From positions 1 through 64,000 of IMG/VR virus record IMGVR_UViG_3300037462_000487: a stretch of DNA of 64,000 nt; one strand, 5' to 3'. The notes beneath the pieces are model-generated. The model was not told the origin of the DNA and ran no database searches. It saw nothing but the letters and a program-made list of their open reading frames with translations. Shown piece after piece: positions 1 through 10,964 of this stretch. Source of the DNA: a virus (Duplodnaviria; Caudoviricetes). The position numbers and the translations under genes are program-made. Numbering within the stretch: position 1 is the first letter of the stretch; every line of letters starts with the position of its first letter.

Positions 1-982
1 TTCTCTTTCTATTCAAAAGAATGTTTTGCACAAAGTTCAGCAGCGTGTTCTGCAATACCGCGTTATCGGTTTGTGAAAAGACTTGCATTTCACTTACATC
101 GTCATACTCCGGGTGTGGCATTTCCAGCACCATCACCCAGGTGTTCTGTTCGGTTACAGCGTGACAATGCCGACAATTGTACATAGTGGTTTTGAAAAAG
201 TCAAACGGGTTCTCTGCCAGCACCACGTTATCACCAAAAATACAGCTATCGAGTCCTGCGTATTGAAACGAAACTTTGTCAGCAAACCGAACATTGCGTA
301 AATCGCAGCTTAGCAAAATAGCATAGTTAAACGCAACTTCATCCAGCTTCGCTGCCCGAAAATTGCAGTCAACAAAGCGAGTTTCAAAGCCATTAACTGC
401 TCTAAACTGAGTCGTCGCAAACTGACACTTGAAGAACTGGCTGCCTGTCAGATCACACAGATACAGATTAACATTGTTGAAAGTCAGGTTTTGAAACTGC
501 CGGTAGTGAAATACCCACCCACACAGCAGATTGCGACTCCAAACGATGTGGTTATCTTCTGTAATCCAGAAAGCGCCGTCGTCTGCCAGATTCAGAATTT
601 CCTGCACATAGTATTCATTCGGGCTGGCGGGAAAGGGTGTCATTTTTGTTGGCAGCCAGTTATCCTGAATTTTATCACGAGTAACGGAACTGAACTGCCA
701 GACATTGACAGGCATACCTGCTGCCTGCCGGCACTGCGACGGCAAAGCTTCCTTGAGCAGCAGCAGTGAACATTTAGGTACGCCTGCCAGTTGACAGACT
801 TCATCAGCATTTAGCGCTCCGCCGGCAAGAAAAATCAGGTACCGCCCGTCATCACTGACGATAAACGGATACCCGCGCTGCAACCAGCGAACTTCTTCCT
901 TTTCCAGCAGCGACTCTTTGACGTTGACGGTGTTATCCCACCGCGTGGTACGAAATACCTCAATTAAATTATCCGACTGCAT
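1..982 (-). CDS. Pentapeptide-repeat protein (3'-truncated by window edge), paralogue of 8041..8946
   Basis: Manually translated from ATG at 982; open to base 2 with no stop. ILNLADDGAFWITED-NHIVWSRNLLCG aligns with VLDLAEDDAFWIDDRTSSIIYASDLLTG of 8041..8946; degenerate 5-residue repeats follow (CDLTG SQFFK CQFAT TQFRA ... CNFRA AKLDE). Absent from the ORF track because it runs off the edge. Confidence 0.75.
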   Translation of the reverse strand, partial: MQSDNLIEVFRTTRWDNTVNVKESLLEKEEVRWLQRGYPFIVSDDGRYLIFLAGGALNADEVCQLAGVPKCSLLLLKEALPSQCRQAAGMPVNVWQFSSVTRDKIQDNWLPTKMTPFPASPNEYYVQEILNLADDGAFWITEDNHIVWSRNLLCGWVFHYRQFQNLTFNNVNLYLCDLTGSQFFKCQFATTQFRAVNGFETRFVDCNFRAAKLDEVAFNYAILLSCDLRNVRFADKVSFQYAGLDSCIFGDNVVLAENPFDFFKTTMYNCRHCHAVTEQNTWVMVLEMPHPEYDDVSEMQVFSQTDNAVLQNTLLNFVQNILLNRKR

Positions 983-983
983 A

Positions 984-1673
984 TCACTCTCCTTTGTCTA
1001 CCCGGTTAAGCGCTGCCAGCGTTTCCGTTAACCACTGCCGCAGTTCGTCCGCTGTCAGGTTTTCTGTTGTCTGAAAACGCAATACGCTGCCTCTGGTGTG
1101 TGTCGGCAGCGACTTAGACAGCGCAGTAACTGTTTCACCTGCTTTAACAACACTCAAGTTACCGGTAGCGCTGATTTCAATCGCATAGCCAGGAAATTCT
1201 CCTTCCCACCCCCACTTTTTCCAGCTTGCTTTTTCCGGCACATACCGGAGTTTCATCAAGTCGCTGATAGTGACTCGCAGCGACGTTTTTTCAGGATACT
1301 GCCGTACTCGATAATCACGGTTAGAGAGGCGTTCTTCGATCACCAGCAGGTGTTGAGTGTCGGCAAACGCGGTACCGACTTCTTCCGACAGCCAGAAACC
1401 CAATCCGTCTTCCTGTTCGTAAGCCAGGTCTACCGCGTCATCGTCGTCGTCATCAAAATAGATAGCAACTTCATAATAAGCGCCAAAGTCATGCGGATTG
1501 CTTTTAACTCGATACTGGATAGTACTGTCGGCAGGCGATACATTATAATGTCGCTGCAAGTGGCGAATGTAGTTTGCACATTCATTACGCGCAGCAGTAG
1601 GATTACTGTAAGGCACCTGCTCACACGGTTCTTCCGCCGGTGTCGGGCCAATACTGAGGTAGTCGCGTGTCAT
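984..1673 (-). CDS. Hypothetical phage protein
   Basis: 229-aa ORF with AAGGAG RBS, in the minus-strand gene chain; acidic N-terminal domain (DYLSIGPTP..E..CEQV, KSNPHDFGAYYEV). Confidence 0.8.
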   Translation of the reverse strand: MTRDYLSIGPTPAEEPCEQVPYSNPTAARNECANYIRHLQRHYNVSPADSTIQYRVKSNPHDFGAYYEVAIYFDDDDDDAVDLAYEQEDGLGFWLSEEVGTAFADTQHLLVIEERLSNRDYRVRQYPEKTSLRVTISDLMKLRYVPEKASWKKWGWEGEFPGYAIEISATGNLSVVKAGETVTALSKSLPTHTRGSVLRFQTTENLTADELRQWLTETLAALNRVDKGE

Positions 1674-1807
1674 TTTAATCTTCTCCTTACGAACAATTCA
1701 TCAGCAATTACTGCTATCGTGTCTTTAAACTGGTTTAACGCTTTCAGCATGTTAGCTGTGGCTGCGTTGGCAGCTAAAAGCAGTTCGTACCGAATTTTTT
1801 AACTCAT
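1670..1807 (-). pseudogene. 45-codon ORF with premature TAA at codon 3
   Basis: ATG AGT TAA AAA ATT CGG TAC ... TTA AAA TGA exactly fills the gap between flanking genes, with ATGA overlaps at both ends. Confidence 0.35.
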
Positions 1808-2598
1808 GCCAGCATCTCCTGCTCGACGCGCTCAATAGTTTGCAAAGCCAGTGCCAGACGATCCGGGTGAGCGCGGTATTCGTGCTGTGCCCATTTTTGC
1901 GCTTGCTCTACGGTGCCGTTAAACCAGCTTTGATTCAACATCAACCTGCCACGCTCTGCGACACGCCCGTTACTATCAACGAGCCAGGCGTAAATTTTGC
2001 TACCGGTACGGTCGTGAGGGGCATCAAACTGTCGCAGCAGCGTGTTCTCTACCAGAGAACCTTTCAAGTCCACGCTACGCAGGTTTGCGCCAGCAAAGTT
2101 CGCGCCAGTCGCGTCTGCGCCACGCAGAGTCGCGCCAGCGAAGTTCGCGCCAGCGAAGTTCGCGCCACGCAGGTTTGCGTTAGTCAGGATTGCGTTAGTC
2201 AGGTTTGCGTCAGCGCAGTTCGCGCCAGTCATGTTTGCGCCATACAGCTTTGCGGCAGTCATGTTTGCGCCAGCAAAGTTCGCGCCACACAGTTTTACGC
2301 AAATCGTCAAGTCCGCGCCATACAGGTCTGCGCCAGTAAAGTTCGCGTCAACAAAGTTCGCGGCACGCAAGCTCGCGCTACGCAGGTTCGCGTAACAAAA
2401 AACTGAACGAGAAAAATCGCAGCAGTGAATCGGGATACCTGTCAAATCTAGCCGGGACAAGTCTAACTCCCACAGATCACAATCCGCCAGCGGCGGATTG
2501 TTGTAGCTGCGTTTTTCCGGGTCGGCAAACTTGCTGCCGAAAAAAGCGATAATTTGACGAACCTCAGCGGAGGTTAGGAATAGCAAACTGTTAGTCAT
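1804..2598 (-). CDS. Pentapeptide-repeat protein with conserved N- and C-terminal domains
   Basis: Long A(N/D)(L/F)xx tract (ANFVD ANFTG ADLYG ... ANLTN AILTN ANLRG ANFAG); N-cap DPEKRSYNNPPLA; C-domain RQFDAPHDRTG. Confidence 0.92.
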   Translation of the reverse strand: MTNSLLFLTSAEVRQIIAFFGSKFADPEKRSYNNPPLADCDLWELDLSRLDLTGIPIHCCDFSRSVFCYANLRSASLRAANFVDANFTGADLYGADLTICVKLCGANFAGANMTAAKLYGANMTGANCADANLTNAILTNANLRGANFAGANFAGATLRGADATGANFAGANLRSVDLKGSLVENTLLRQFDAPHDRTGSKIYAWLVDSNGRVAERGRLMLNQSWFNGTVEQAQKWAQHEYRAHPDRLALALQTIERVEQEMLA

Positions 2599-3290
2599 GC
2601 CAGCATCTCTTTCTCAACTTTTTCCAGCGTTTTGAGCGCCAGTGCCTGCCGCTGCGGGTTGTTGTATTCCCGCACAGACATTCTCTGCGCTTCTAGCAGG
2701 GTGCCGGTGAAGCAGCCCTGATTAATCATCAGGGTGCCTGACTCAGCCAGGCAACCATATTCGTCAACATACCAGGCATTGATTGGGTTATTGTTGCGAG
2801 AGTGTGGCGCGTCAAACTGCCGGATTCCGATAACCTTATTTAAGTCTGTTATATCAAACTTCACGTTTTTTAGATAAGCGCCGTAAAAGTTGACGGTGTT
2901 TAACGTGGCACGATAGAACCAGACATCTCTCAGCACGGCACCGTAAAACGAGACACGTTCCAGCACAGCACTGCGGAACCCGACACCTCGTAGCTCAGTG
3001 TGGTAAAAAGACACATCTCTCAACACCGCGGTGCGAAACATAACTCCATTCAGCAGCATATTTTTAAAGATAATTCGTTCCAGAATCGAGTCACTGAAAC
3101 TGCGGTAATCCCAAAGCAGCGCAGACAAATCTAAATCTGACAGGTCGGCCCAGTCTTCGTCAGAGTCGGGTGTGATGTGTATCTCCGCCAGTGGCGGCGG
3201 ATATTCGGGGAATTTAAGCGCAAACTGACTGAAAAAAGCTACTACGCTTCCTACCTGAGAAGCCGTCAGATGCTGCCGATTAGCAATCAT
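2595..3290 (-). CDS. Pentapeptide-repeat protein (AVLRD VSFYH type repeats)
   Basis: Start reassigned to ATG at 3290 (MIANRQH), overlapping the upstream gene end. Repeats AVLRD VSFYH, AVLER VSFYG; same C-domain IRQFDAPHSRN...NQGCFTGT. Confidence 0.85.
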   Translation of the reverse strand: MIANRQHLTASQVGSVVAFFSQFALKFPEYPPPLAEIHITPDSDEDWADLSDLDLSALLWDYRSFSDSILERIIFKNMLLNGVMFRTAVLRDVSFYHTELRGVGFRSAVLERVSFYGAVLRDVWFYRATLNTVNFYGAYLKNVKFDITDLNKVIGIRQFDAPHSRNNNPINAWYVDEYGCLAESGTLMINQGCFTGTLLEAQRMSVREYNNPQRQALALKTLEKVEKEMLA

Positions 3291-3810
3291 TGTCAACTCT
3301 TTCGTAAACTTTAAAATCAAATTTGCCGCGGTAGGTAGCGTAAAAACGTGGTCGCAGCCAGACTGTCGATTCGACATCCCACGCACAAAAATCACGGTAA
3401 TACTCTACGTCGGTGGGGTAACTTGCGTACCGATACGGCAGCCAGACAGCATCATAATCCTGAGCTAACGCTTCCCAATCCAGCAGATGATAGCGTTGCT
3501 GCCAGAAAGTGTATTTTTCCCGGAAGGAGTCGGTAAAGACTTTTTCTGCCAACTTTAAAACTCTGGCGGTGCGGTGCGGGAAAATCAGCCAGGCTTGATT
3601 GGCATAGAGGCAAAAATCGCTGTCGTAGCAAAATTGTGCCCAGGCTGAGCCACCGCGGGTGTCCAGTGAAGATGTCCAGAAGCAGTTAGCGGGTTTGTTG
3701 ATGATATTTAACCGCACCGGATTTCGGTTGGCAAACTGCTGCTGTTGTTTGAGTTGGACTGACAGCGGGTGAGCTGCCGCTGTCAGATGTAGCTGCACCG
3801 GCAAAGACAT
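3280..3810 (-). CDS. Hypothetical phage protein
   Basis: 176-aa ORF with AGGAG RBS; Trp/Tyr-rich (WDVESTVWL). Confidence 0.75.
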   Translation of the reverse strand: MSLPVQLHLTAAAHPLSVQLKQQQQFANRNPVRLNIINKPANCFWTSSLDTRGGSAWAQFCYDSDFCLYANQAWLIFPHRTARVLKLAEKVFTDSFREKYTFWQQRYHLLDWEALAQDYDAVWLPYRYASYPTDVEYYRDFCAWDVESTVWLRPRFYATYRGKFDFKVYERVDNDC

Positions 3811-3823
3811 TGAACTTTTCTCC

Positions 3824-3985
3824 TTAAGTTACCAGAGTGAGCAAAAGCTGCCAGCACATCCACAGCAGAATCAGCACCACAAACACGATCAGACACCCTG
3901 CTGCCAGCGGCGGCGCAAACACCAGCGTCGCCGCGGTGGCAATAATACCTAGCATAGTCAGACAGTTCAAACATCCAGATTGCAT
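3824..3985 (-). CDS. Small membrane protein (53 aa)
   Basis: Manual translation MQSGCLNCLTMLGIIATAATLVFAPPLAAGCLIVFVVLILLWMCWQLLLTLVT; two hydrophobic segments; fills the gap between neighbours. Confidence 0.6.
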   Translation of the reverse strand: MQSGCLNCLTMLGIIATAATLVFAPPLAAGCLIVFVVLILLWMCWQLLLTLVT

Positions 3986-3988
3986 AAC

Positions 3989-4378
3989 TTACTCTTTCTG
4001 GCTTAACGCCGCTTTAACCCATTGTTCTTTGAGCCATTCATTGTAAGCTGGAAAGGCGGAATCAAACGTATACCATTCTGCATCCGGGAAATACCCACCG
4101 GGCTGCCGGGGGAAGGCTTCGCCACGCTCAATCGCCGCAAATACGTCGGCTGTAGTAGTCGCGGTGCCGGTGTACGGGATCAGGCAGCTACTTTCGACCC
4201 ACCGGAAGATGTGGTACGTCAGCGTGGTTTCGGCGGAATACTTCAAAAACGGTATTTTGTACTGACTGTGGATGAGTGTTAGCTGGTGACGATACGAGTG
4301 TTCCAGCGTCAGCAACTGCGTCAGCAAACCTTTCAGGTAAGCGATTTTTTCGGGAAAACTTTTGTTGAAGTTTGTCAC
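3989..4378 (-). CDS. Hypothetical protein
   Basis: 129-aa ORF, GAGGAG RBS, GTGA-coupled to the upstream gene. Confidence 0.7.
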   Translation of the reverse strand: MTNFNKSFPEKIAYLKGLLTQLLTLEHSYRHQLTLIHSQYKIPFLKYSAETTLTYHIFRWVESSCLIPYTGTATTTADVFAAIERGEAFPRQPGGYFPDAEWYTFDSAFPAYNEWLKEQWVKAALSQKE

Positions 4379-4653
4379 TTTGCTCCCTCATATAGCTGAT
4401 TAACTCGCAGCGCCCAGATGTAGACATACTCCTGCCGACACCATTTATGCAGCAATTGGCGGGTACTCTTTTTCTCCGCACGCTGAATATAGTACTCAAA
4501 CTGGCGGGAATAGCCGGTGATGGGATCGTCGAGCTGCACGATCCCCAGAACAGTGGCTTTGACGCTGCCGGTGACAACTACATCTGCCGGCAAACGCGAT
4601 TTACTGAGAGTTAATCCACCGGGAAAAAGCCATTGATCGTTATTGTCTGACAT
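4375..4653 (-). CDS. Hypothetical protein
   Basis: 92-aa ORF with GGAG RBS. Confidence 0.7.
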   Translation of the reverse strand: MSDNNDQWLFPGGLTLSKSRLPADVVVTGSVKATVLGIVQLDDPITGYSRQFEYYIQRAEKKSTRQLLHKWCRQEYVYIWALRVNQLYEGAK

Positions 4654-4698
4654 TTGATTACTCTCCGTGACTTCTTGATGACAATTTTAGCATACCAG

Positions 4699-5133
4699 TT
4701 AGCTGCCGGCAATCCTCTCTTTCAACTGCCGCGAAGCAAAAATAACCGCCAGATGTAGTGCAAAGTCGGCGGGAGTGAAACGGGGGTCAATCGCGGTAAC
4801 AGGAGTCTGCGCAGACGCTGCCTGCGCGATCTCCCGCAGCCGATCCTGCGCAGCCGCCGGCAGTGCAAGCTGCACTGTTTTTGCCGGGTGCGGGAATGCC
4901 TGCCAGGCAGCTTCCCACTGCCGAAACAGCGTCTGCCAGTCGTTTTCCGTCAGTCGCGGCTGCGCATCGTGTAGAATTTGCACCGCAGCTTGCAGAATGA
5001 GAGATACTTTAACGTTGTTGTCGGTGGTAAGCCACACCCGCAGCGGCGGTGGCAGCAGCAGCAGACTTTGCTTCACAGCGTTACCCAGGCGAGTAAAATC
5101 AGGCAACATGACTTCAAACAGAAACAGGTTCAT
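4699..5133 (-). CDS. Hypothetical protein
   Basis: 144-aa ORF, CGGAG RBS, tight packing. Confidence 0.7.
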   Translation of the reverse strand: MNLFLFEVMLPDFTRLGNAVKQSLLLLPPPLRVWLTTDNNVKVSLILQAAVQILHDAQPRLTENDWQTLFRQWEAAWQAFPHPAKTVQLALPAAAQDRLREIAQAASAQTPVTAIDPRFTPADFALHLAVIFASRQLKERIAGS

Positions 5134-5135
5134 CG

Positions 5136-5339
5136 TTAGACTCCGTCTTCACCAAACAACCAGTCACCAATAACTTTCGTTACCAGATCGGTATACACGT
5201 AGCCGTGTTTGTGTTCCATAATCTGCCCGACAACCGTTTGAAAGACAGTTGTCTGCGGGGTTTTGGTTGAATAATAGATCGTGACGCTATCTTCATCAAT
5301 CTTCACCAGCATCTCGCTGTCGGTAGCGATAAAAATCAC
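5136..5339 (-). CDS. Hypothetical protein (67 aa)
   Basis: GTG start overlaps the TGA of the upstream mini-ORF. Confidence 0.55.
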   Translation of the reverse strand: MIFIATDSEMLVKIDEDSVTIYYSTKTPQTTVFQTVVGQIMEHKHGYVYTDLVTKVIGDWLFGEDGV

Positions 5340-5437
5340 TTTATGCTGCGGCTTTCCGGGTCAGTGAACTTACCACTGAAAAGATCGACGATTTTATGAA
5401 CCTCATAGTCGGTTAGAGGCAGCAAGTTGTCAGTCAT
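5336..5437 (-). CDS. 33-aa stand-alone copy of the pentapeptide-protein N-terminal module
   Basis: MTDNLLPLTDYEVHKIVDLFSGKFTDPESRSIK with AAGGAG RBS; matches MTDNLQRLTATEVREIAAAFSEDTFTDPENRS of 9429..10205. Confidence 0.55.
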   Translation of the reverse strand: MTDNLLPLTDYEVHKIVDLFSGKFTDPESRSIK

Positions 5438-5508
5438 GCGTTTTGCTCCTTAAAAGCTGCGCGACGTAAAGCACCGCTGCATACGCTGCCGGGGCGGTAG
5501 AGTTTCAT
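5434..5508 (-). CDS. 24-aa mini-ORF
   Basis: MKLYRPGSVCSGALRRAAFKEQNA; GGAGG RBS and ATGA overlaps at both ends. Confidence 0.35.
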   Translation of the reverse strand: MKLYRPGSVCSGALRRAAFKEQNA

Positions 5509-5891
5509 TTTCCTCCGTACTTTTTGAAGGGAAAAGTTCCGGTGCTGATAAGAATATCCAGCACTTCTTCCAGAGTTTTTGGGTTATTCTCACAATCAAA
5601 TTCACCAAGTACCTCATCCCCGCGATACGCTCGCCAGCGTTCCCACCCAAACCCGTACCCGGTCACAAACTGTAACCGATACTCTCCTTTACTTTTATTA
5701 AGTGGGTCATTAGACTTAAACACCGGAGGCGGTTTTCCGTAGGCAGTCAGATATTTACGTACCCTACTGACAATTTCCTGCGCGTTGCCATATTCCATGG
5801 TACGCATGGTTGCCTCAACGTGTTCCAGATGATATTTTACATCATCCGGGATGTCCTGACGTTCACGCCAATGTTGGTCAAAATTTTTCAC
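5505..5891 (-). CDS. Hypothetical protein
   Basis: Start reassigned to GTG at 5891 (AGGAG 8 nt upstream); MKNFDQHWRE... Confidence 0.7.
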   Translation of the reverse strand: MKNFDQHWRERQDIPDDVKYHLEHVEATMRTMEYGNAQEIVSRVRKYLTAYGKPPPVFKSNDPLNKSKGEYRLQFVTGYGFGWERWRAYRGDEVLGEFDCENNPKTLEEVLDILISTGTFPFKKYGGK

Positions 5892-5954
5892 CGTAACATC
5901 TCCTGTTCGATATGCGCCAGCGGCTGTTATACACCGCAATGGTGTAAAGGGAAG

Positions 5955-6341
5955 TTATTGGACAGACTCCTTAATAAGCTGCGCCGTGTACAGAATAGCG
6001 ACATACGGCACAATCTCGTCAATTAACCGCAGATAGACACCGATACGAACCAGCTTAAGCCAAAGCCGATCCGATTCGTCTAAAAAGACGAATGATCGAC
6101 TCTCCCACGAGTCAGCCAGCGGCTTACGCCGGTAGGTGTCGGCGATGTACGCAGTCCAATCGACTTCGTAGCAGCCGTCGGGAGCTTCTATCACCCGCAG
6201 TACATTGCTTACCGCTACCCGTAACTGCGGCAGTGACTCGCTAGACGGGTCCAGCAAAACGGGGGCGGCGTTATAACGCTGCCACATATAGTCGCTGATA
6301 ATACGCCACTCTGCCGCCACCGCGGCAACGTTAATCTTCAT
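5955..6341 (-). CDS. Hypothetical protein
   Basis: Start reassigned to ATG at 6341 (GGAGG RBS); MKINVAAVAAEW... Confidence 0.7.
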   Translation of the reverse strand: MKINVAAVAAEWRIISDYMWQRYNAAPVLLDPSSESLPQLRVAVSNVLRVIEAPDGCYEVDWTAYIADTYRRKPLADSWESRSFVFLDESDRLWLKLVRIGVYLRLIDEIVPYVAILYTAQLIKESVQ

Positions 6342-6978
6342 CGTTTTCCTCCGGCGGATACTGCTGCTGCAAAGCCGACACCAGCCGTGTAAACTGCGGC
6401 GCTGACCGCAGCAGCCGGGAGGCATCCCGGTACAGATGATAGGTTTTTTCCTGCCACACCAGATACGTGTTACTGCGCTGGTCGGCAGTCGTTATCAAGT
6501 CATCGACAGTGACATGATACAGATGCAAACCGTAAGCAACCGTCGTCAGCAGGCAGCCGACAAAATTGGTGTCCCTACCGATAGTCAGAGACTGCGCAGG
6601 TACGCCGCCAAAGTCGCAGTCGTAGAGTGTAGCAGCCCCCGAAAAGACGAGTCGCTGCAACCGGCTGAAACGAAAGTCAACTCCTTTAAGCAGACAGTCA
6701 CGCAGCACCAGACTGCCAGTAGCATAGCGAAAGTTGCAGCTTTCCAGAGTTGTTGCCTGCACTTCGGTCGGCTCACCAAAAATCATGCCTGGCCAGTCTA
6801 ACTTTACCAGCCGACACCGATAAAAAGCCAGGTTTTTTGCCGGCCAACTCAGATTCAGAAACGGCTGCGACGCAGTGTAGCACAGTTCTTCACCCCGGAA
6901 CAGCGGCTCACGCAGCCGGGGAGGGAATTGCAGGCGCTTTGCCACTTGCGTATCGGTTAAAGAAGCGTAAGAAGTCAT
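6331..6978 (-). CDS. Degenerate pentapeptide-repeat protein
   Basis: TTLES CNFRY ... CLLKG VDFRF SRLQR ... ATLYD CDFGG, i.e. L/F periodicity of five. Confidence 0.65.
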   Translation of the reverse strand: MTSYASLTDTQVAKRLQFPPRLREPLFRGEELCYTASQPFLNLSWPAKNLAFYRCRLVKLDWPGMIFGEPTEVQATTLESCNFRYATGSLVLRDCLLKGVDFRFSRLQRLVFSGAATLYDCDFGGVPAQSLTIGRDTNFVGCLLTTVAYGLHLYHVTVDDLITTADQRSNTYLVWQEKTYHLYRDASRLLRSAPQFTRLVSALQQQYPPEENDED

Positions 6979-7187
6979 TGTGAGTCACCCCCGGAAGTCA
7001 GTTTTTCTTCAGTTACAGCCAGGTCGGCCAAAATGCCTGCCAGCAGCGTCGGATTGTCGGCGTAGAGACGCTGCGCCTGCTCGCGGGCAGACTGCACCAT
7101 CACGCGCAGCAGGTTCACGGGTGGGTTAGGAATACTACCAAATGCGACACTGGTTAATTCCGGCTTTCCAAATTCGTTGCGGTTCAT
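6975..7187 (-). CDS. Hypothetical protein (70 aa)
   Basis: AGGAGATGCTGCAATG start context; ATGA-coupled to the next gene. Confidence 0.65.
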   Translation of the reverse strand: MNRNEFGKPELTSVAFGSIPNPPVNLLRVMVQSAREQAQRLYADNPTLLAGILADLAVTEEKLTSGGDSQ

Positions 7188-7208
7188 TGCAGCATCTCCT
7201 ATTTGATC

Positions 7209-7790
7209 TTAATTATGCGCGTTTTGCTCTTGATGAATGGTGTAACCCAACTTCTTGATGATGCTTACTGCCAATTCGACATCGGCAGCCGCTACGAAGA
7301 CGCTGCTGGCGGCATTGTGCCGCAGGTAGCAATCATCTACGCCGGCATCGCCGACACCGGCTTCCGCCAGCGCGACTTGAACGAAATACATATCGTCCGG
7401 GGCGATATTATGTAAAACAATTTCATACGAGTTTTGGCTGGTAGGCACTTCCGACGGCGGTTCATAGCTGCTTTTCAGTCCGATGCAGCCGATGACTCGG
7501 CCGGCTTCGTCCCGGATGAGTTCTCCGGGAGAAAAAACGTCGGGGCGGTGCGGCACACGCGATGCCACCAGCATCGACACGATGTAAATCGTGTCTGGCT
7601 GCGGTTCCGGCAGGTCAGTCACTGCCCCATACTGCGCCACCACGGCTGCCACGCCGGGGATCGGCGAAGCCGCAGGTTTTGTGGTGACTTCGCAGCGGGC
7701 GGCCGGAGCCGTGGGTTGAATAATCAGAAAAGTGCCGTCCTCGCGCTGGATGTTCAGCGCGTGAGGAGTGAGATTAATGGCATCAGTCAT
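7209..7790 (-). CDS. Hypothetical phage protein, two-domain (INLTPH ... YIVS ... RDEAGRVIGC)
   Basis: 193-aa ORF with AGGAG RBS, starting ~30 nt after the tmRNA-like RNA. Confidence 0.8.
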   Translation of the reverse strand: MTDAINLTPHALNIQREDGTFLIIQPTAPAARCEVTTKPAASPIPGVAAVVAQYGAVTDLPEPQPDTIYIVSMLVASRVPHRPDVFSPGELIRDEAGRVIGCIGLKSSYEPPSEVPTSQNSYEIVLHNIAPDDMYFVQVALAEAGVGDAGVDDCYLRHNAASSVFVAAADVELAVSIIKKLGYTIHQEQNAHN

Positions 7791-7821
7791 GGCAGTACTC
7801 CTATAGCTAGATTGTTAACAG

Positions 7822-7941
7822 TGGACGTGCAGGGAATCGAACCCTGATCCACACCGCCGGTTGGGAAAAAGCCAGACCCCTGTACGTGCGCCTTCGCGGG
7901 GAATTAGTGGCACCGGCAGCGTGTCGAAGCCAGTCACGCCC
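7822..7941 (-). ncRNA. Mini tmRNA-like RNA: tRNA-like domain only (~120 nt)
   Basis: 5' GGGCGUG-ACUGGCUUCGAC; 11-bp helix ACGCUGCCGGU/ACCGGCGGUGU; GGAU linker; T-arm CAGGG-UUCGAUU-CCCUG; 3' CACGUCC-A. 7-bp acceptor stem with G3-U70, stemless D-loop, A discriminator, all tmRNA hallmarks. Interior is only ~50 nt. Confidence 0.85.
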
Positions 7942-7950
7942 GTATCTGGA

Positions 7951-7979
7951 ATTGTAGCAAAAAAAATAAGCGGTGTCAA
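7951..7979 (-). promoter_or_regulatory. Sigma70-type promoter of the mini-tmRNA
   Basis: TTGACA-17 bp-TACAAT with TG extended -10; the -10 box ends 9 nt before the RNA 5' G. Confidence 0.85.
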
Positions 7980-7990
7980 GCGATGGAATC

Positions 7991-8022
7991 AAAAAACCCG
8001 TCAGCCGGATAGCTGACGGGTT
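7991..8022 (-). terminator. Rho-independent terminator (copy 1)
   Basis: AACCCGTCAGC-TATCCG-GCTGACGGGTT followed by a U-tract on the minus strand. Confidence 0.85.
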
Positions 8023-8040
8023 CGAGTCAGAATTGACAGG

Positions 8041-8946
8041 TTACAGGTCGGGGTTCTGCCGCAGGAAAGCCAGAAGCTGCTCCCCGGCGTTATCTGCGGA
8101 GCAGGCTTCACACCCGCCAAAAGAACGCGGCGTTGACAGCAGTGCCCAACTCTCAGCCAGCGTCAGCAGGGAGAAGTTGCAGTGCCACGCCGAAGCACGG
8201 TGGAACAGCGTATCATCGGCAAAGTCAGTGCCGCGAAAGTGACAGCGCTGAAAAAAGCCGCCTGAGAAGCTGGTGGCACGCACGGTACACTGTGCCAGTG
8301 TACATTCGTACCAGCCGGTATTCCAGGCGCGGCTGTGGTCAAACAAACACGAGAAAAAGCGGCACTTGTGGAAGGATTTGTTATCGAAGTTGCATTGCAG
8401 CAGCTTCAGATTGACAAAATCAAAGTCACTCAGGTAGCCTTTCCAGGCGGTGAAATCTGCTCCGGTGAGCAGATCGCTGGCGTAGATGATAGATGAGGTG
8501 CGGTCATCAATCCAAAAAGCATCGTCTTCGGCTAGATCGAGTACCGCTTGAAGCCATTCCTTTTCCTCAGGGAAGGCAAAAGACTGGCTGACAACCAGTG
8601 GCCGATCCGTCAGCCGGGGTTCCCACAGCCGGCCGCAGGAACGATACTGCGGAAAAGCTTCCGCAAGGTACCGCAGCAGATTGCTATCCGCCATTGGCAC
8701 TTCGTCTGCGTCAAAATTGAGCAGCTTGAAAAAGACTTCCAGCGGCACGCTGCTACCGCTGGCGGCTCGCACCCGACCATCATCAGGGGTGTAGATGAAC
8801 TTTTCGCGGCGCTGCATGGCGGCACGAAACAAATCTAGCCTGGTTTGGTTCGGGAACTGCCAGGGTGCCACAAACCCCTCCCACTTGGTGGCGCTGACGG
8901 CTTCAATGAGATCGGTCAAAAACCTGTTGAACTGGTGCAGTGACAT
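8041..8946 (-). CDS. Pentapeptide-repeat protein with distinct N-terminal domain
   Basis: C-terminal degenerate repeats (CNFDN KSFHK CRFFS CLFDH ... CTLAQ ... TSFSG GFFQR CHFRG TDFAD); GGAGGAG RBS; paralogue of 1..982. Confidence 0.82.
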   Translation of the reverse strand: MSLHQFNRFLTDLIEAVSATKWEGFVAPWQFPNQTRLDLFRAAMQRREKFIYTPDDGRVRAASGSSVPLEVFFKLLNFDADEVPMADSNLLRYLAEAFPQYRSCGRLWEPRLTDRPLVVSQSFAFPEEKEWLQAVLDLAEDDAFWIDDRTSSIIYASDLLTGADFTAWKGYLSDFDFVNLKLLQCNFDNKSFHKCRFFSCLFDHSRAWNTGWYECTLAQCTVRATSFSGGFFQRCHFRGTDFADDTLFHRASAWHCNFSLLTLAESWALLSTPRSFGGCEACSADNAGEQLLAFLRQNPDL

Positions 8947-8966
8947 GGTAGACTCCTCCGGGGATC

Positions 8967-9001
8967 AAAAAAAAACCCGTCAGCCAGATAGCTGACGGGT
9001 T
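8967..9001 (-). terminator. Rho-independent terminator (copy 2)
   Basis: Same hairpin as 7991..8022 except one loop base, with a longer U-tract. Confidence 0.85.
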
Positions 9002-9015
9002 AGTGGTTGAAAATG

Positions 9016-9432
9016 TTAGAAACCGTACAGATCAGCACCGTACAGATCAGCACCGTCCAGATCGGCACCTTTCAGATTGGCACTGTCTAGTTTGACACCG
9101 CCCAGGTTGGCACCCGCCAGACGGCAGCCCGCCATTTCTACACGGCGCATTAACGAGCCGGAAAAATTGGTACGGGCGAAATTGATGTATTCAAACACAG
9201 ACCCGGACAAATCCCGGTACTGCTCCGGGATGCCGGACAAATCCAGCCCGGAGAGGTCGGCCCAGACTTCCCAGGGCTTTTCTCCGGGCGGAATTTCCCG
9301 CACCAGCCGAATCCCTGCCAGCGGCGGATCGTTGTAGCTGCGTTTTTCCGGGTCAGTGGAATCATCGTCACTGAAAAAAGCGACAATTTGACGAAACTCG
9401 TGAGCGGTGAGGCTTTGCAGGTCATTAGTCAT
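9016..9432 (-). CDS. Short pentapeptide-repeat protein lacking the C-terminal domain
   Basis: N-cap DPEKRSYNDPPLA, WADLSGLDLSG, ANLGG VKLDS ANLKG ADLDG ADLYG ADLYG; ends immediately after the repeats. Confidence 0.85.
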   Translation of the reverse strand: MTNDLQSLTAHEFRQIVAFFSDDDSTDPEKRSYNDPPLAGIRLVREIPPGEKPWEVWADLSGLDLSGIPEQYRDLSGSVFEYINFARTNFSGSLMRRVEMAGCRLAGANLGGVKLDSANLKGADLDGADLYGADLYGF

Positions 9433-10205
9433 TGCATCATCTCCTGTTCGATACTGTCAATGATTTGCAGTGCCTGCGTCAGGCGCTCCGGGACATCGTA
9501 CTCCCGCTGTGCCCGTTCCCGCGCCTGATCGGCGGTGCCGGTGAAACATCCCTGATTGATAACGATGGTGCCGTCCTCGGACAGTCGCCCATCAGCATCG
9601 ACCAGCCAGGCAAACACCTGATTACCATTGCGGGAATACGGCGCGTCAAACTGCCGGATCAGGTCGTTCTCTATCAGAGCGCCACTCAGGTTCGCGTCGC
9701 GCAGGTTCGCACCACGCAGGTTCGCACCACGCAGAGTCGCGCCAGTAAAGTTCGCGCCATCTAGAATCGCGCTGGCGAAGTTCGCGCCAGCGCAGTTCGC
9801 GTCGCGCAAAATTGCGCCAGTCATATCTGCGCCACGCATGTTTGCGCGACGCAGCTTTGCGCCAGCAAAGTTCGCGTCACGCAGGATTGTGCCAGTCATA
9901 TCTGCGCCACGCATGTTTGCGCGACGCAGCTTTGCGCCACGCAGGTTCGCACCAGTAAAGTTCGCGTCGCGCAACTTTGCGCCACGCAGGTTTGAGTAAC
10001 ACAAAACTGAACAAGAAAAATCGCGGCAGTGGATCGGCATACCTGTCAGATTTAGATTAGACAAGTCTAACCTCCACAGAATACAATCCGCCAGCGGCGG
10101 GTTCGAGCTGCTGCGGTTTTCCGGGTCAGTGAACGTATCTTCACTGAACGCGGCGGCGATTTCACGAACTTCAGTCGCGGTGAGGCGTTGCAGATTGTCA
10201 GTCAT
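9429..10205 (-). CDS. Pentapeptide-repeat protein
   Basis: ANFTG ANLRG AKLRR ANMRG ADMTG tract with internal duplication; N-cap DPENRSSSNPPLA; C-domain IRQFDAPYSRNG...NQGCFTGT. Confidence 0.92.
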   Translation of the reverse strand: MTDNLQRLTATEVREIAAAFSEDTFTDPENRSSSNPPLADCILWRLDLSNLNLTGMPIHCRDFSCSVLCYSNLRGAKLRDANFTGANLRGAKLRRANMRGADMTGTILRDANFAGAKLRRANMRGADMTGAILRDANCAGANFASAILDGANFTGATLRGANLRGANLRDANLSGALIENDLIRQFDAPYSRNGNQVFAWLVDADGRLSEDGTIVINQGCFTGTADQARERAQREYDVPERLTQALQIIDSIEQEMMQ

Positions 10206-10229: not shown

Positions 10230-10964
10230 TTAAAGGTTAGTCGATGAGTTCGGCTTTGTCAAGGCGAAAACGAATTTGCCACCCTGACCGGGCTGCGCGG
10301 CAATAACGCGCAGGTTGCGTGAAGGAATACGCCAGCGCGGCGTTTCCGGGAACTGGAAGAAAACACTGCTGGTTAAAGTATCGGCAGCGTCTTGTGGATT
10401 GGTGCGGGTGACGGATTTGTACAAGTCGTACAGCGACAGACTCCGTCCCCAGAACGTAAACCAGCGGCGGCCTGCCAGCCGGGCCAGCGCATCTTCCCGC
10501 GATTTGCCGGCAGCGGCAAATCGCTGTGGCAGAACGGGAAACAACACCGGAGTCGCACCAGCAGCAGGGCGAAAACCGTACCACGCCAAAAAGTGCCGCT
10601 GGCGCAGTTCCGCCACGACAAAGTAAATCGGGCGGTTGAATGGCAGACACAGCGGGTTAGCCAGCCACACCCGCACCACCTGACTGGCATTGTCTAACCC
10701 CGGAATAAAAGCCAGTTCCGGGATGACTTCAGTAAAATTTAATACAAGGGGGTATCGCTGCGATTCAAAAGACAGACTCCGCTGCACAGCAGCGGTATGC
10801 AGCACCTTGTCCTGAAAATTCCGGCGGCGCAGCCGCCGCGTGTTGCGCGAGGAATTACCGGCACGGGGATGCATTCCACGCGCCCACCGGGGGTTTCCCC
10901 GGTCGGGGTTACGAAAGGCATAGGCGTTTTCATGGATGTAGTTATTGTTGTGGTCAAATGGCAT
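10230..10964 (-). CDS. Hypothetical protein, basic/aromatic
   Basis: 244-aa ORF with GAGGG RBS, continuing the minus-strand chain. Confidence 0.65.
   Translation of the reverse strand: MPFDHNNNYIHENAYAFRNPDRGNPRWARGMHPRAGNSSRNTRRLRRRNFQDKVLHTAAVQRSLSFESQRYPLVLNFTEVIPELAFIPGLDNASQVVRVWLANPLCLPFNRPIYFVVAELRQRHFLAWYGFRPAAGATPVLFPVLPQRFAAAGKSREDALARLAGRRWFTFWGRSLSLYDLYKSVTRTNPQDAADTLTSSVFFQFPETPRWRIPSRNLRVIAAQPGQGGKFVFALTKPNSSTNL

Follow-up and report, generated by a model that had tools for sequence, protein, structure and literature searches.

Can a transfer-messenger RNA (tmRNA) that has lost its message be a gene in its own right, and what would a phage gain from carrying one? This question is raised by a short locus in a 64,000-nucleotide stretch of viral DNA (the window), which is the first part of the 75.5-kb IMG/VR virus record IMGVR_UViG_3300037462_000487. 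Trans-translation, the process that tmRNA serves, is the main ribosome-rescue pathway of bacteria and an antibiotic target. On the minus strand of the window, at 7941-7822, lies a tag-less mini-tmRNA gene of 120 nt, which we refer to as the locus RNA. A first-pass annotation had read it as the tRNA-like domain (TLD) of a tmRNA without an mRNA-like domain. The record comes from a wetland metagenome and is 92% complete by CheckV, and its terminase and structural genes establish that the RNA is carried by a phage. The large terminase subunit (TerL) of this phage has at most 25% identity to that of any GenBank phage, and blastn of 7700-8100 found no match in GenBank phages or Escherichia coli genomes. 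Judged by its sequence, the locus RNA is almost certainly a TLD-only (tag-less) tmRNA. This kind of molecule has already been published once, from Mycobacterium phage DS6A, and is widespread in phage sequences.

The RNA is built from the following parts, given from its 5' to its 3' end:

7935-7941, minus strand: 5' strand of the acceptor stem, GGGCGUG (nt 1-7), with the G3 of G3:U70; pairs 7/7 with 7823-7829
7923-7934, minus strand: stemless D-loop ACUGGCUUCGAC (nt 8-19) with the tmRNA-type GGNUUCGAC motif
7912-7922, minus strand: 5' strand of helix 2a (nt 20-30), pairing with 7851-7861
7871-7911, minus strand: helix 2 extension, with GCCA/UGGC (nt 31-34 with 68-71) and CCCC/GGGG (nt 41-44 with 62-65)
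within 7871-7911, minus strand: 17-nt apical loop GCGAAGGCGCACGUACA (nt 45-61), inside CCCC/GGGG
7862-7870, minus strand: unpaired 3'-side internal loop UUUUUCCCA (nt 72-80, 9 nt)
7851-7861, minus strand: 3' strand of helix 2a (nt 81-91)
7830-7850, minus strand: GGAU linker (nt 92-95) and T-arm CAGGG-UUCGAUU-CCCUG (nt 96-112)
7822-7829, minus strand: 3' strand of the acceptor stem, CACGUCC, with U70 (nt 113-119), and the discriminator A (A120, equivalent to A73)

Every sequence feature listed in the first-pass annotation is present where it had been placed, including the G3:U70 pair, the A discriminator, the D-loop, the GGAU linker, and the T-arm. Helix 2 is indeed fully paired over 11 bp, two of which are G-U, and C19:G92 forms a twelfth pair. 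Standard tmRNA (SsrA, Rfam family RF00023) shares with the locus RNA the tRNA-like domain (7-bp acceptor stem, GGNUUCGAC D-loop, GGAY linker, and T-arm), the identity elements for alanyl-tRNA synthetase (AlaRS), namely G3:U70 and A73, and the base of helix 2. In the Rfam tmRNA consensus, the D-loop motif corresponds to GGaUUCGAC, an alignment seen with a homologue in contig L198.

In contrast to standard tmRNA, which measures ∼350-420 nt, the ∼120-nt locus RNA has neither pseudoknots nor any part of the mRNA-like domain (resume codon, tag frame, and in-frame stop). Its only stops are UGA at nt 6 and UAA at nt 36, and frames that start after nt 38 never terminate inside the RNA, as the earlier reading of a missing tag open reading frame (ORF) had it. 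That reading had also seen no room for the pseudoknot ring (PK1-PK4), and the 50 nt between the helix-2a strands do fold as a simple extended hairpin. Both GCCA/UGGC and CCCC/GGGG are formed in the minimum free energy (MFE) fold, the z-score of which is only -1.73. We rejected an identity as standard tmRNA on the lack of pseudoknots, of a tag frame, and of an Rfam score. With tRNA-Ala, the locus RNA has in common the acceptor stem with G3:U70, A73, and the T-arm, but it possesses no D-stem and no anticodon arm. This identity was rejected as well, as there is no cloverleaf, ARAGORN reports no tRNA, and the D-stem positions are unpaired. CCA is not encoded, in line with the first reading; CUG directly follows the discriminator A, and any CCA of the locus RNA would therefore have to be added post-transcriptionally.

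Standard tools pass over the locus. ARAGORN finds 0 genes (tRNA or tmRNA) in the window and calls no mini-tmRNA (mini) in the window, in L002, or in 12 mini-tmRNA loci. Rfam yields nothing for the locus RNA at gathering level: RF00023 fails to match it both at gathering (47 bits) and at E 10, the whole record is likewise free of RF00023 matches, and the Rfam tRNA model has no match to it at E 10. At E 10, only the permuted-tmRNA model RF04321 touches its 3' part including the T-arm, with a sub-threshold 22.7 bits. The matches to both ends that had been expected from ARAGORN and from the Rfam tmRNA models are thus absent. RF00023 does match several relatives above cut-off, with its central 300 positions replaced by ∼50 nt; on the L198 RNA, the match runs end to end at 55.6 bits, with 49 nt in place of the central 300 positions.

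A strict descriptor (perfect acceptor and T stems, G3:U70, and the D-loop motif) gave one match in both strands of the window and two in 1.7 Mb of other loci, both of them genuine minis. These two are the DS6A RNA and a 118-nt RNA in contig L198, which had been fetched solely for encoding a homologue of the protein encoded next to the locus RNA. We also built a covariance model, R2, from 17 other sequences (15 minis, DS6A, and one weak hit), with the locus RNA excluded. R2 matches the locus RNA over its full length (7822-7941) with 69.2 bits (E 3.6e-14) and no non-standard pair, and there is no second match in the window or elsewhere in the 75.5-kb record. For comparison, R2 scores range from 53 to 97 bits in other minis and reach 56 bits for DS6A but only 28.5 bits for a genuine tRNA-Ala; an additional family model, R1, gives the DS6A RNA 43.9 bits. 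Because the strict descriptor is so specific and R2 was built without the locus RNA, we regard the locus RNA as real beyond chance. A covariance search, which had been proposed as a check, has thereby located the RNA.

Relatives were collected by pattern scans written from the 3' end, and all family counts are therefore lower bounds. The 3'-end pattern recovered 14 minis of 99-123 nt, half of them in viral contigs (7) and half in contigs of metagenome-assembled genomes (MAGs; 7); in all, relatives of this length class number 15. Among the matches listed, there are at least 125 minis of 75-91 nt, with 87 unique sequences and a mode of 79 nt, and 8 minis of 130-137 nt were recovered by pattern. 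Loose patterns (TTCGAC...GGGTTCGA, CTGGNTTCGAC...) were rejected, their matches being tandem tRNAs only. Patterns demanding an internal GCGAAGGCGC were rejected as well, as they gave chance matches in GC-rich coding DNA: all matches in IMG/VR were of this sort, none was obtained in genomes, and in metagenomes the matches listed were due to chance. An exact 21-mer scan and a neighbour-protein search in IMG/VR found nothing.

The 16 long forms were aligned (alignment A2) for covariation tests. Across them, 96.6% of the cells are paired, compared with 41-57% for slid controls, and both-sided changes occur in 13 of 20 pairs. The covariation score is 0.70, against ≤0.17 for the slid controls, and was reached by none of 500 shuffles. 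Acceptor pairing was a selection criterion for the family, whereas helix 2 was not used in the selection; in helix 2, both-sided changes are found in 7 of 8 pairs, with 91% of the cells paired. The two outer T-stem pairs covary across the family as well. The first reading, a tmRNA tRNA-like domain without an mRNA-like domain, is thus backed by homologues with compensatory changes.

These data also bear on the idea that the locus is a relic, that is, a host ssrA with an internal deletion, a piece of ssrA of the attP type, or an artefact of assembly. Two points speak for it: ssrA is a frequent integration site of phages and islands, which then carry the 3' end of the gene (PMC4131195), and the Rfam tmRNA model is blind to the locus RNA. 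Yet the gene is complete at both ends and has a promoter of its own, a search for a tyrosine integrase in the 92%-complete phage record gave none, and the large family evolves with compensatory changes, so that covariation largely refutes the relic reading. Four bacterial MAGs contain a mini (60-70 bits) in addition to a full-length tmRNA (125-157 bits), and the two differ in acceptor stem and helix 2. The minis are hence extra, independent genes and not recent deletions of the resident ssrA. Finally, the only sequencing run listed as containing this DNA is a wetland DNA run, perhaps its source, and no RNA run is listed. A Logan contig from that run is identical to the window throughout 7600-8200 and gives no indication of a collapsed full-length ssrA, an outcome that had been named as a possible refutation. 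Taken together, we consider a relic or artefact extremely improbable.

The elements that specify alanylation are kept without exception. G3:U70 and A73 are found in 16 of 16 long minis, and among the matches listed, the GGG start, G3:U70, and A73 occur in all of the at least 125 shorter or longer minis, although the family filter would equally have passed A3:U70. CCA is encoded in 4 of the 16 long minis and in 24 of the 125 minis of 75-137 nt among the matches listed. Minis L413 (∼10367-10454, minus strand) and L403 (3031-3107, plus strand) lie inside same-strand phage tRNA arrays, as expected for RNAs that are processed like tRNAs. Clustering of the genomic contexts revealed no protein family common to all mini loci.

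Two members of the collection deserve separate mention. At L342 1726-1829 (plus strand), a 104-nt mini with encoded CCA, scoring 93 bits with RF00023, is located in a contig of a Caldarchaeales-labelled MAG that contains no full-length tmRNA; the archaeal label probably reflects a mis-binned or viral contig. At L389 9361-9513 (plus strand), 320 nt 3' of the mini of that contig, R1 gives a second, weak match of 27.3 bits and 153 nt, which could be another tRNA-like gene.

The closest published counterpart of the locus RNA is that of DS6A. Hudson, Lau and Williams name "Mycobacterium phage DS6A (TLD only)" (PMC4131195), and a 2025 tmRNA database article lists only nine "standard, no CDS" entries (CDS, coding sequence) among 97,179 sequences (PMC11915505). 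The statement in the first-pass annotation that known phage tmRNAs are all full length was hence wrong, and with the DS6A form in the literature (PMC4131195, PMC11915505), its premise of novelty falls. We located the DS6A RNA at JN698994 28478-28557 (80 nt, then CUA; tmRNA Website tmID 11587). The two phage RNAs agree in the acceptor stem (7 bp, with G3:U70), A73, the T-arm, and a D-loop of the tmRNA type that lacks a stem; in both, a short hairpin caps helix 2a, and a tag frame is missing. Neither encodes CCA (CUA in DS6A, CUG in the locus RNA), and both are missed by ARAGORN but recognised by family covariance models. They differ in length (80 versus 120 nt) and in the linker (GCAC in DS6A, GGAU in the locus RNA), and their hosts and phage lineages are unrelated. 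Helix 2 of the locus RNA is longer than that of DS6A by two segments, and the RNA also has an internal loop of 9 nt and a conserved apical loop of 17 nt.

Tag-less tmRNAs are also described for organelles. According to PMC11915505, which cites Jacob et al. 2004, the CDS-less tmRNAs of jakobid and oomycete mitochondria and of Mallomonadaceae plastids likewise consist of the tRNA-like domain only, have no tag frame, and have SmpB as a presumed partner; they are the only tmRNA of the organelle and are often permuted or ∼65 nt long. The locus RNA, in contrast, is viral, and its host would have a complete tmRNA that it would either work alongside or oppose.

What the present locus adds is, as far as its sequence tells, a 120-nt form with an extra conserved loop. 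At the places equivalent to its helix-2 extension, the L198 RNA has GCCAG/CUGGC and CGGU/ACCG, a compensatory change with respect to the locus RNA, whereas the 12-mer CGCGAAGGCGCA of the apical loop is identical in the two. GAAGGCGCA is invariant in five subfamily members (the locus RNA, L198, L391, L338, and L364), and L198 and L391 have 8-nt internal loops at the same place as the 9-nt loop of the locus RNA. Related GAAAGCC/GGCC motifs are found in the other mini length classes. In full tmRNAs, the end of PK1 and the linker that precedes the resume codon look similar to the apical-loop motif, a likeness that need not mean homology.

The gene is embedded in a compact layout:

7994-8023, minus strand: intrinsic terminator with a 13-bp stem (7 G-C pairs) followed by a T run; closes the upstream pentapeptide-repeat gene
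7951-7979, minus strand: sigma-70-type promoter with TTGACA, a 17-nt spacer, TG (extended -10), and TACAAT; 11/12 consensus matches
7209-7790, minus strand: Crn4b-like gene (193 amino acids), with its ATG at 7790 and the ribosome-binding site (RBS) AGGAG at 7802-7798; starts 32 nt 3' of the locus RNA

A TTGACA-17-TG-TACAAT promoter upstream of the RNA, insulated by a terminator, was already part of the first reading, and it holds. The site at 7979-7951 is the sole promoter-like site within 7000-9000, its -10 box ends 10 nt before G1 of the locus RNA, and the spacing suggests a leader of ∼2-4 nt. By its sequence, the terminator at 8023-7994 is predicted to insulate the gene against read-through. 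Comparable promoters lie a few bases upstream of minis L387, L340, and L364. No terminator is found between the locus RNA and the Crn4b-like gene, and the two are therefore probably co-transcribed.

Given this arrangement, the structure might be a cis-acting leader that only processes or stabilises the downstream mRNA, for example by providing an RNase P-defined 5' end. A gene with a good RBS follows 30-50 nt 3' of the RNA here as well as in L198, L384, L387, and L342, with no terminator between. Other minis, however, are located in tRNA arrays or have no gene behind them, and the downstream genes are unrelated between loci. Moreover, a processing signal needs no G3:U70, A73, tmRNA D-loop, and GGAY in every member. 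We judge a purely cis-acting role to be very unlikely.

The three roles offered in the first-pass annotation, SmpB sequestration, tag-less rescue, and a nuclease decoy, are all still plausible. Our preferred reading, which we hold with a probability of roughly 50%, is drawn by analogy: the locus RNA may compete with the host tmRNA for SmpB, AlaRS, EF-Tu, and stalled ribosomes and thereby lower tagging. The analogy comes from an experiment on the DS6A-type RNA, not on the locus RNA. PMC4131195 reports, citing Mao et al. 2009, that a similar molecule caused strong tmRNA inhibition, perhaps by SmpB titration, and PMC11915505 reports, from the same source, that the DS6A form inhibits the endogenous tmRNA of E. 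coli. According to both (PMC4131195 and PMC11915505, citing Mao et al. 2009), inhibition occurs whether or not the RNA can be charged.

In such a scheme, a strong sigma-70 promoter belonging to the locus RNA would drive transcription of both this RNA and the Crn4-like gene, RNase P and 3' trimming would release the RNA, and a host enzyme would add CCA. The mature RNA would show the identity elements of host tmRNA to AlaRS (G3:U70 and A73), to SmpB (D-loop, T-loop, and helix 2), and to EF-Tu. No SmpB domain was found in the phage record, and any SmpB partner of the locus RNA would hence be that of the host. Competition for SmpB and stalled ribosomes would then lead to less ssrA tagging during infection and to less tmRNA-dependent proteolysis and mRNA decay. 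A virus-made tag-less tmRNA of this type would be a natural inhibitor or hijacker of trans-translation.

Several points weigh against competition as the full explanation. CCA is not encoded, so that both processing and charging of the locus RNA are assumed, as is its match to the SmpB and AlaRS of the host. The inhibition reported concerns a different, 80-nt RNA in E. coli. The conserved apical loop and the 40 extra nt have no role in a competition model, and the strict retention of G3:U70 and A73 is unneeded if SmpB titration is the sole role. That inhibition is reported to be independent of charging and these elements are nevertheless kept points to an alanylation-dependent step, for example ribosome entry.

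An alanylation-dependent step is the core of a second possibility, tag-less rescue. Here, the alanylated mini-tmRNA, with SmpB and EF-Tu, would accept the nascent chain, and a host release activity would free the ribosome. Phage proteins made from cut mRNAs would escape proteolysis tags, and RNase R would not be recruited. The invariance of the AlaRS identity elements (G3:U70 and A73) in all minis found suggests that charging matters, and jakobid and oomycete mitochondria, like some plastids, are described as having kept both CDS-less tmRNAs and SmpB (PMC11915505, PMC4131195). On the other hand, no stop codon follows nt 38, so that there is no built-in termination, no RF-1/ArfB-type domain was found in the phage record, and turnover of a TLD-only RNA on ribosomes lacks experimental precedent. 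Tag-less rescue appears unlikely to us, although it is the most probable of the rivals to competition.

The product of 7209-7790 consists of a Crn4b-like ring-nuclease domain (residues 1-105) and an 85-amino acid C-terminal extension. In the AlphaFold2 (AF2) model, the predicted local distance difference test (pLDDT) score is ∼95 or more over residues 1-110 and 54-85 in the C-terminal extension. Foldseek retrieves the Crn4 structures 9sma, 9qs9, and 9r7b (E 2e-9, 30-32% identity), and phmmer against the Protein Data Bank (PDB) finds Crn4a (5.7e-9) and Crn4b (2.5e-7). In the 45 family members compared, residues T8, H10, and R93 never vary; they correspond to the catalytic T13, H15, and R112 of Crn4 (PMC12830947). 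The Crn4-like family comprises >130 clusters, mostly of ∼107-amino acid phage proteins, and has no Pfam or PHROG name. The authors of the Crn4 study proposed phage Crn4 homologues as anti-CRISPRs (PMC12830947). From its sequence and model, the product is a candidate anti-CRISPR or anti-cyclic-oligonucleotide enzyme.

The fold of residues 1-110 recurs at one end of 570-600-amino acid actinobacterial proteins (template modeling (TM) score of 0.83-0.85 by query), which carry SAVED and sometimes TIR domains. From this structural match, Crn4-like domains would seem to form part of cyclic-oligonucleotide effectors.

The locus RNA and the Crn4-like enzyme could then form a single counter-defence module, directed against the cyclic-oligonucleotide defences type III CRISPR or CBASS. 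The enzyme would destroy the cyclic signal, and the RNA would either distract RNase R or tRNA-directed nucleases as a decoy or act as a stalling buffer that takes over ribosomes stalled by signal-activated RNases, with no tagging. The apical-loop sequence CGCGAAGGCGCA, found only in the two Crn4-linked minis, would be a putative specific protein-binding site. The Crn4b-like gene starts just 3' of the locus RNA with no terminator between, and in L198, a contig otherwise unrelated, the mini that shares the 12-mer is preceded, at a distance of 385 nt, by a Crn4-family gene. AcrIIIA1 is reported to carry tRNA/tmRNA fragments that bind RNase R (PMC11662646), and phage Crn4b is proposed as an anti-CRISPR (PMC12830947). 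The pairing was seen only twice, however. No Crn4-like gene flanks ∼150 other mini loci, and no mini was found at five metagenomic Crn4-like loci and in five GenBank phages with Crn4-like genes, where the positive controls were detected in 4 of 4 cases. The two cases may share the module by descent, or both may occupy an accessory-gene region. A general linkage between the RNA and Crn4 was accordingly rejected, and we regard a joint module as quite unlikely, and equally so the decoy, the stalling-buffer variant, and the binding-site role of the loop. That a candidate anti-CRISPR ring nuclease is encoded near a mini in two cases nevertheless provides a concrete hypothesis for why phages carry such RNAs.

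The stretch between the Crn4-like gene and the mini in L198 (3334-3717, plus strand) is GC-rich and non-coding, with many potential hairpins and no Rfam family (best 19 bits).

With ∼150 minis or more recovered in phage contigs by simple patterns and a covariance model, and all of this missed by ARAGORN, the class is much commoner than the literature suggests. PMC11915505 describes a database pipeline that demands a CCA tail and rejects internal deletions. Pipelines of this design would drop most minis. The natural length series (75, 100-123, and 130-137 nt) offers a way to define the minimal tmRNA for SmpB binding, charging, and ribosome entry, and the present locus has a clean promoter-RNA-gene layout that is clonable as it is.

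The surroundings of the locus RNA show further peculiarities. It is embedded in a run of pentapeptide-repeat paralogues (window 1-10205), with weak Pfam Pentapeptide matches at 8041-8946 and 6331-6978 and PHROG matches at 9016-9432 and 9429-10205. By its gene content, this region may be an accessory region, an anti-defence island. Two near-identical terminators at 7994-8023 and 8975-9000 (minus strand), each consisting of ACCCGTCAGCTATCYGGCTGACGGGT and then a T run, flank the pentapeptide-repeat gene 8041-8946 in a cassette-like manner, and the Logan contig has a corresponding repeat joint. An exact 20-nt repeat, ACAATTCCAGATACGGGCGT, of a length beyond chance (E 9e-5), is found in the window at 7936-7955 (minus strand) and in the record at 70530-70549 (plus strand; L002 1501-1520). 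The first copy runs from the -10 box through the leader into the locus RNA gene, of which it takes in 6 nt; the distant one, ∼62 kb off, lies inside an ORF of 438 amino acids with no Pfam match.

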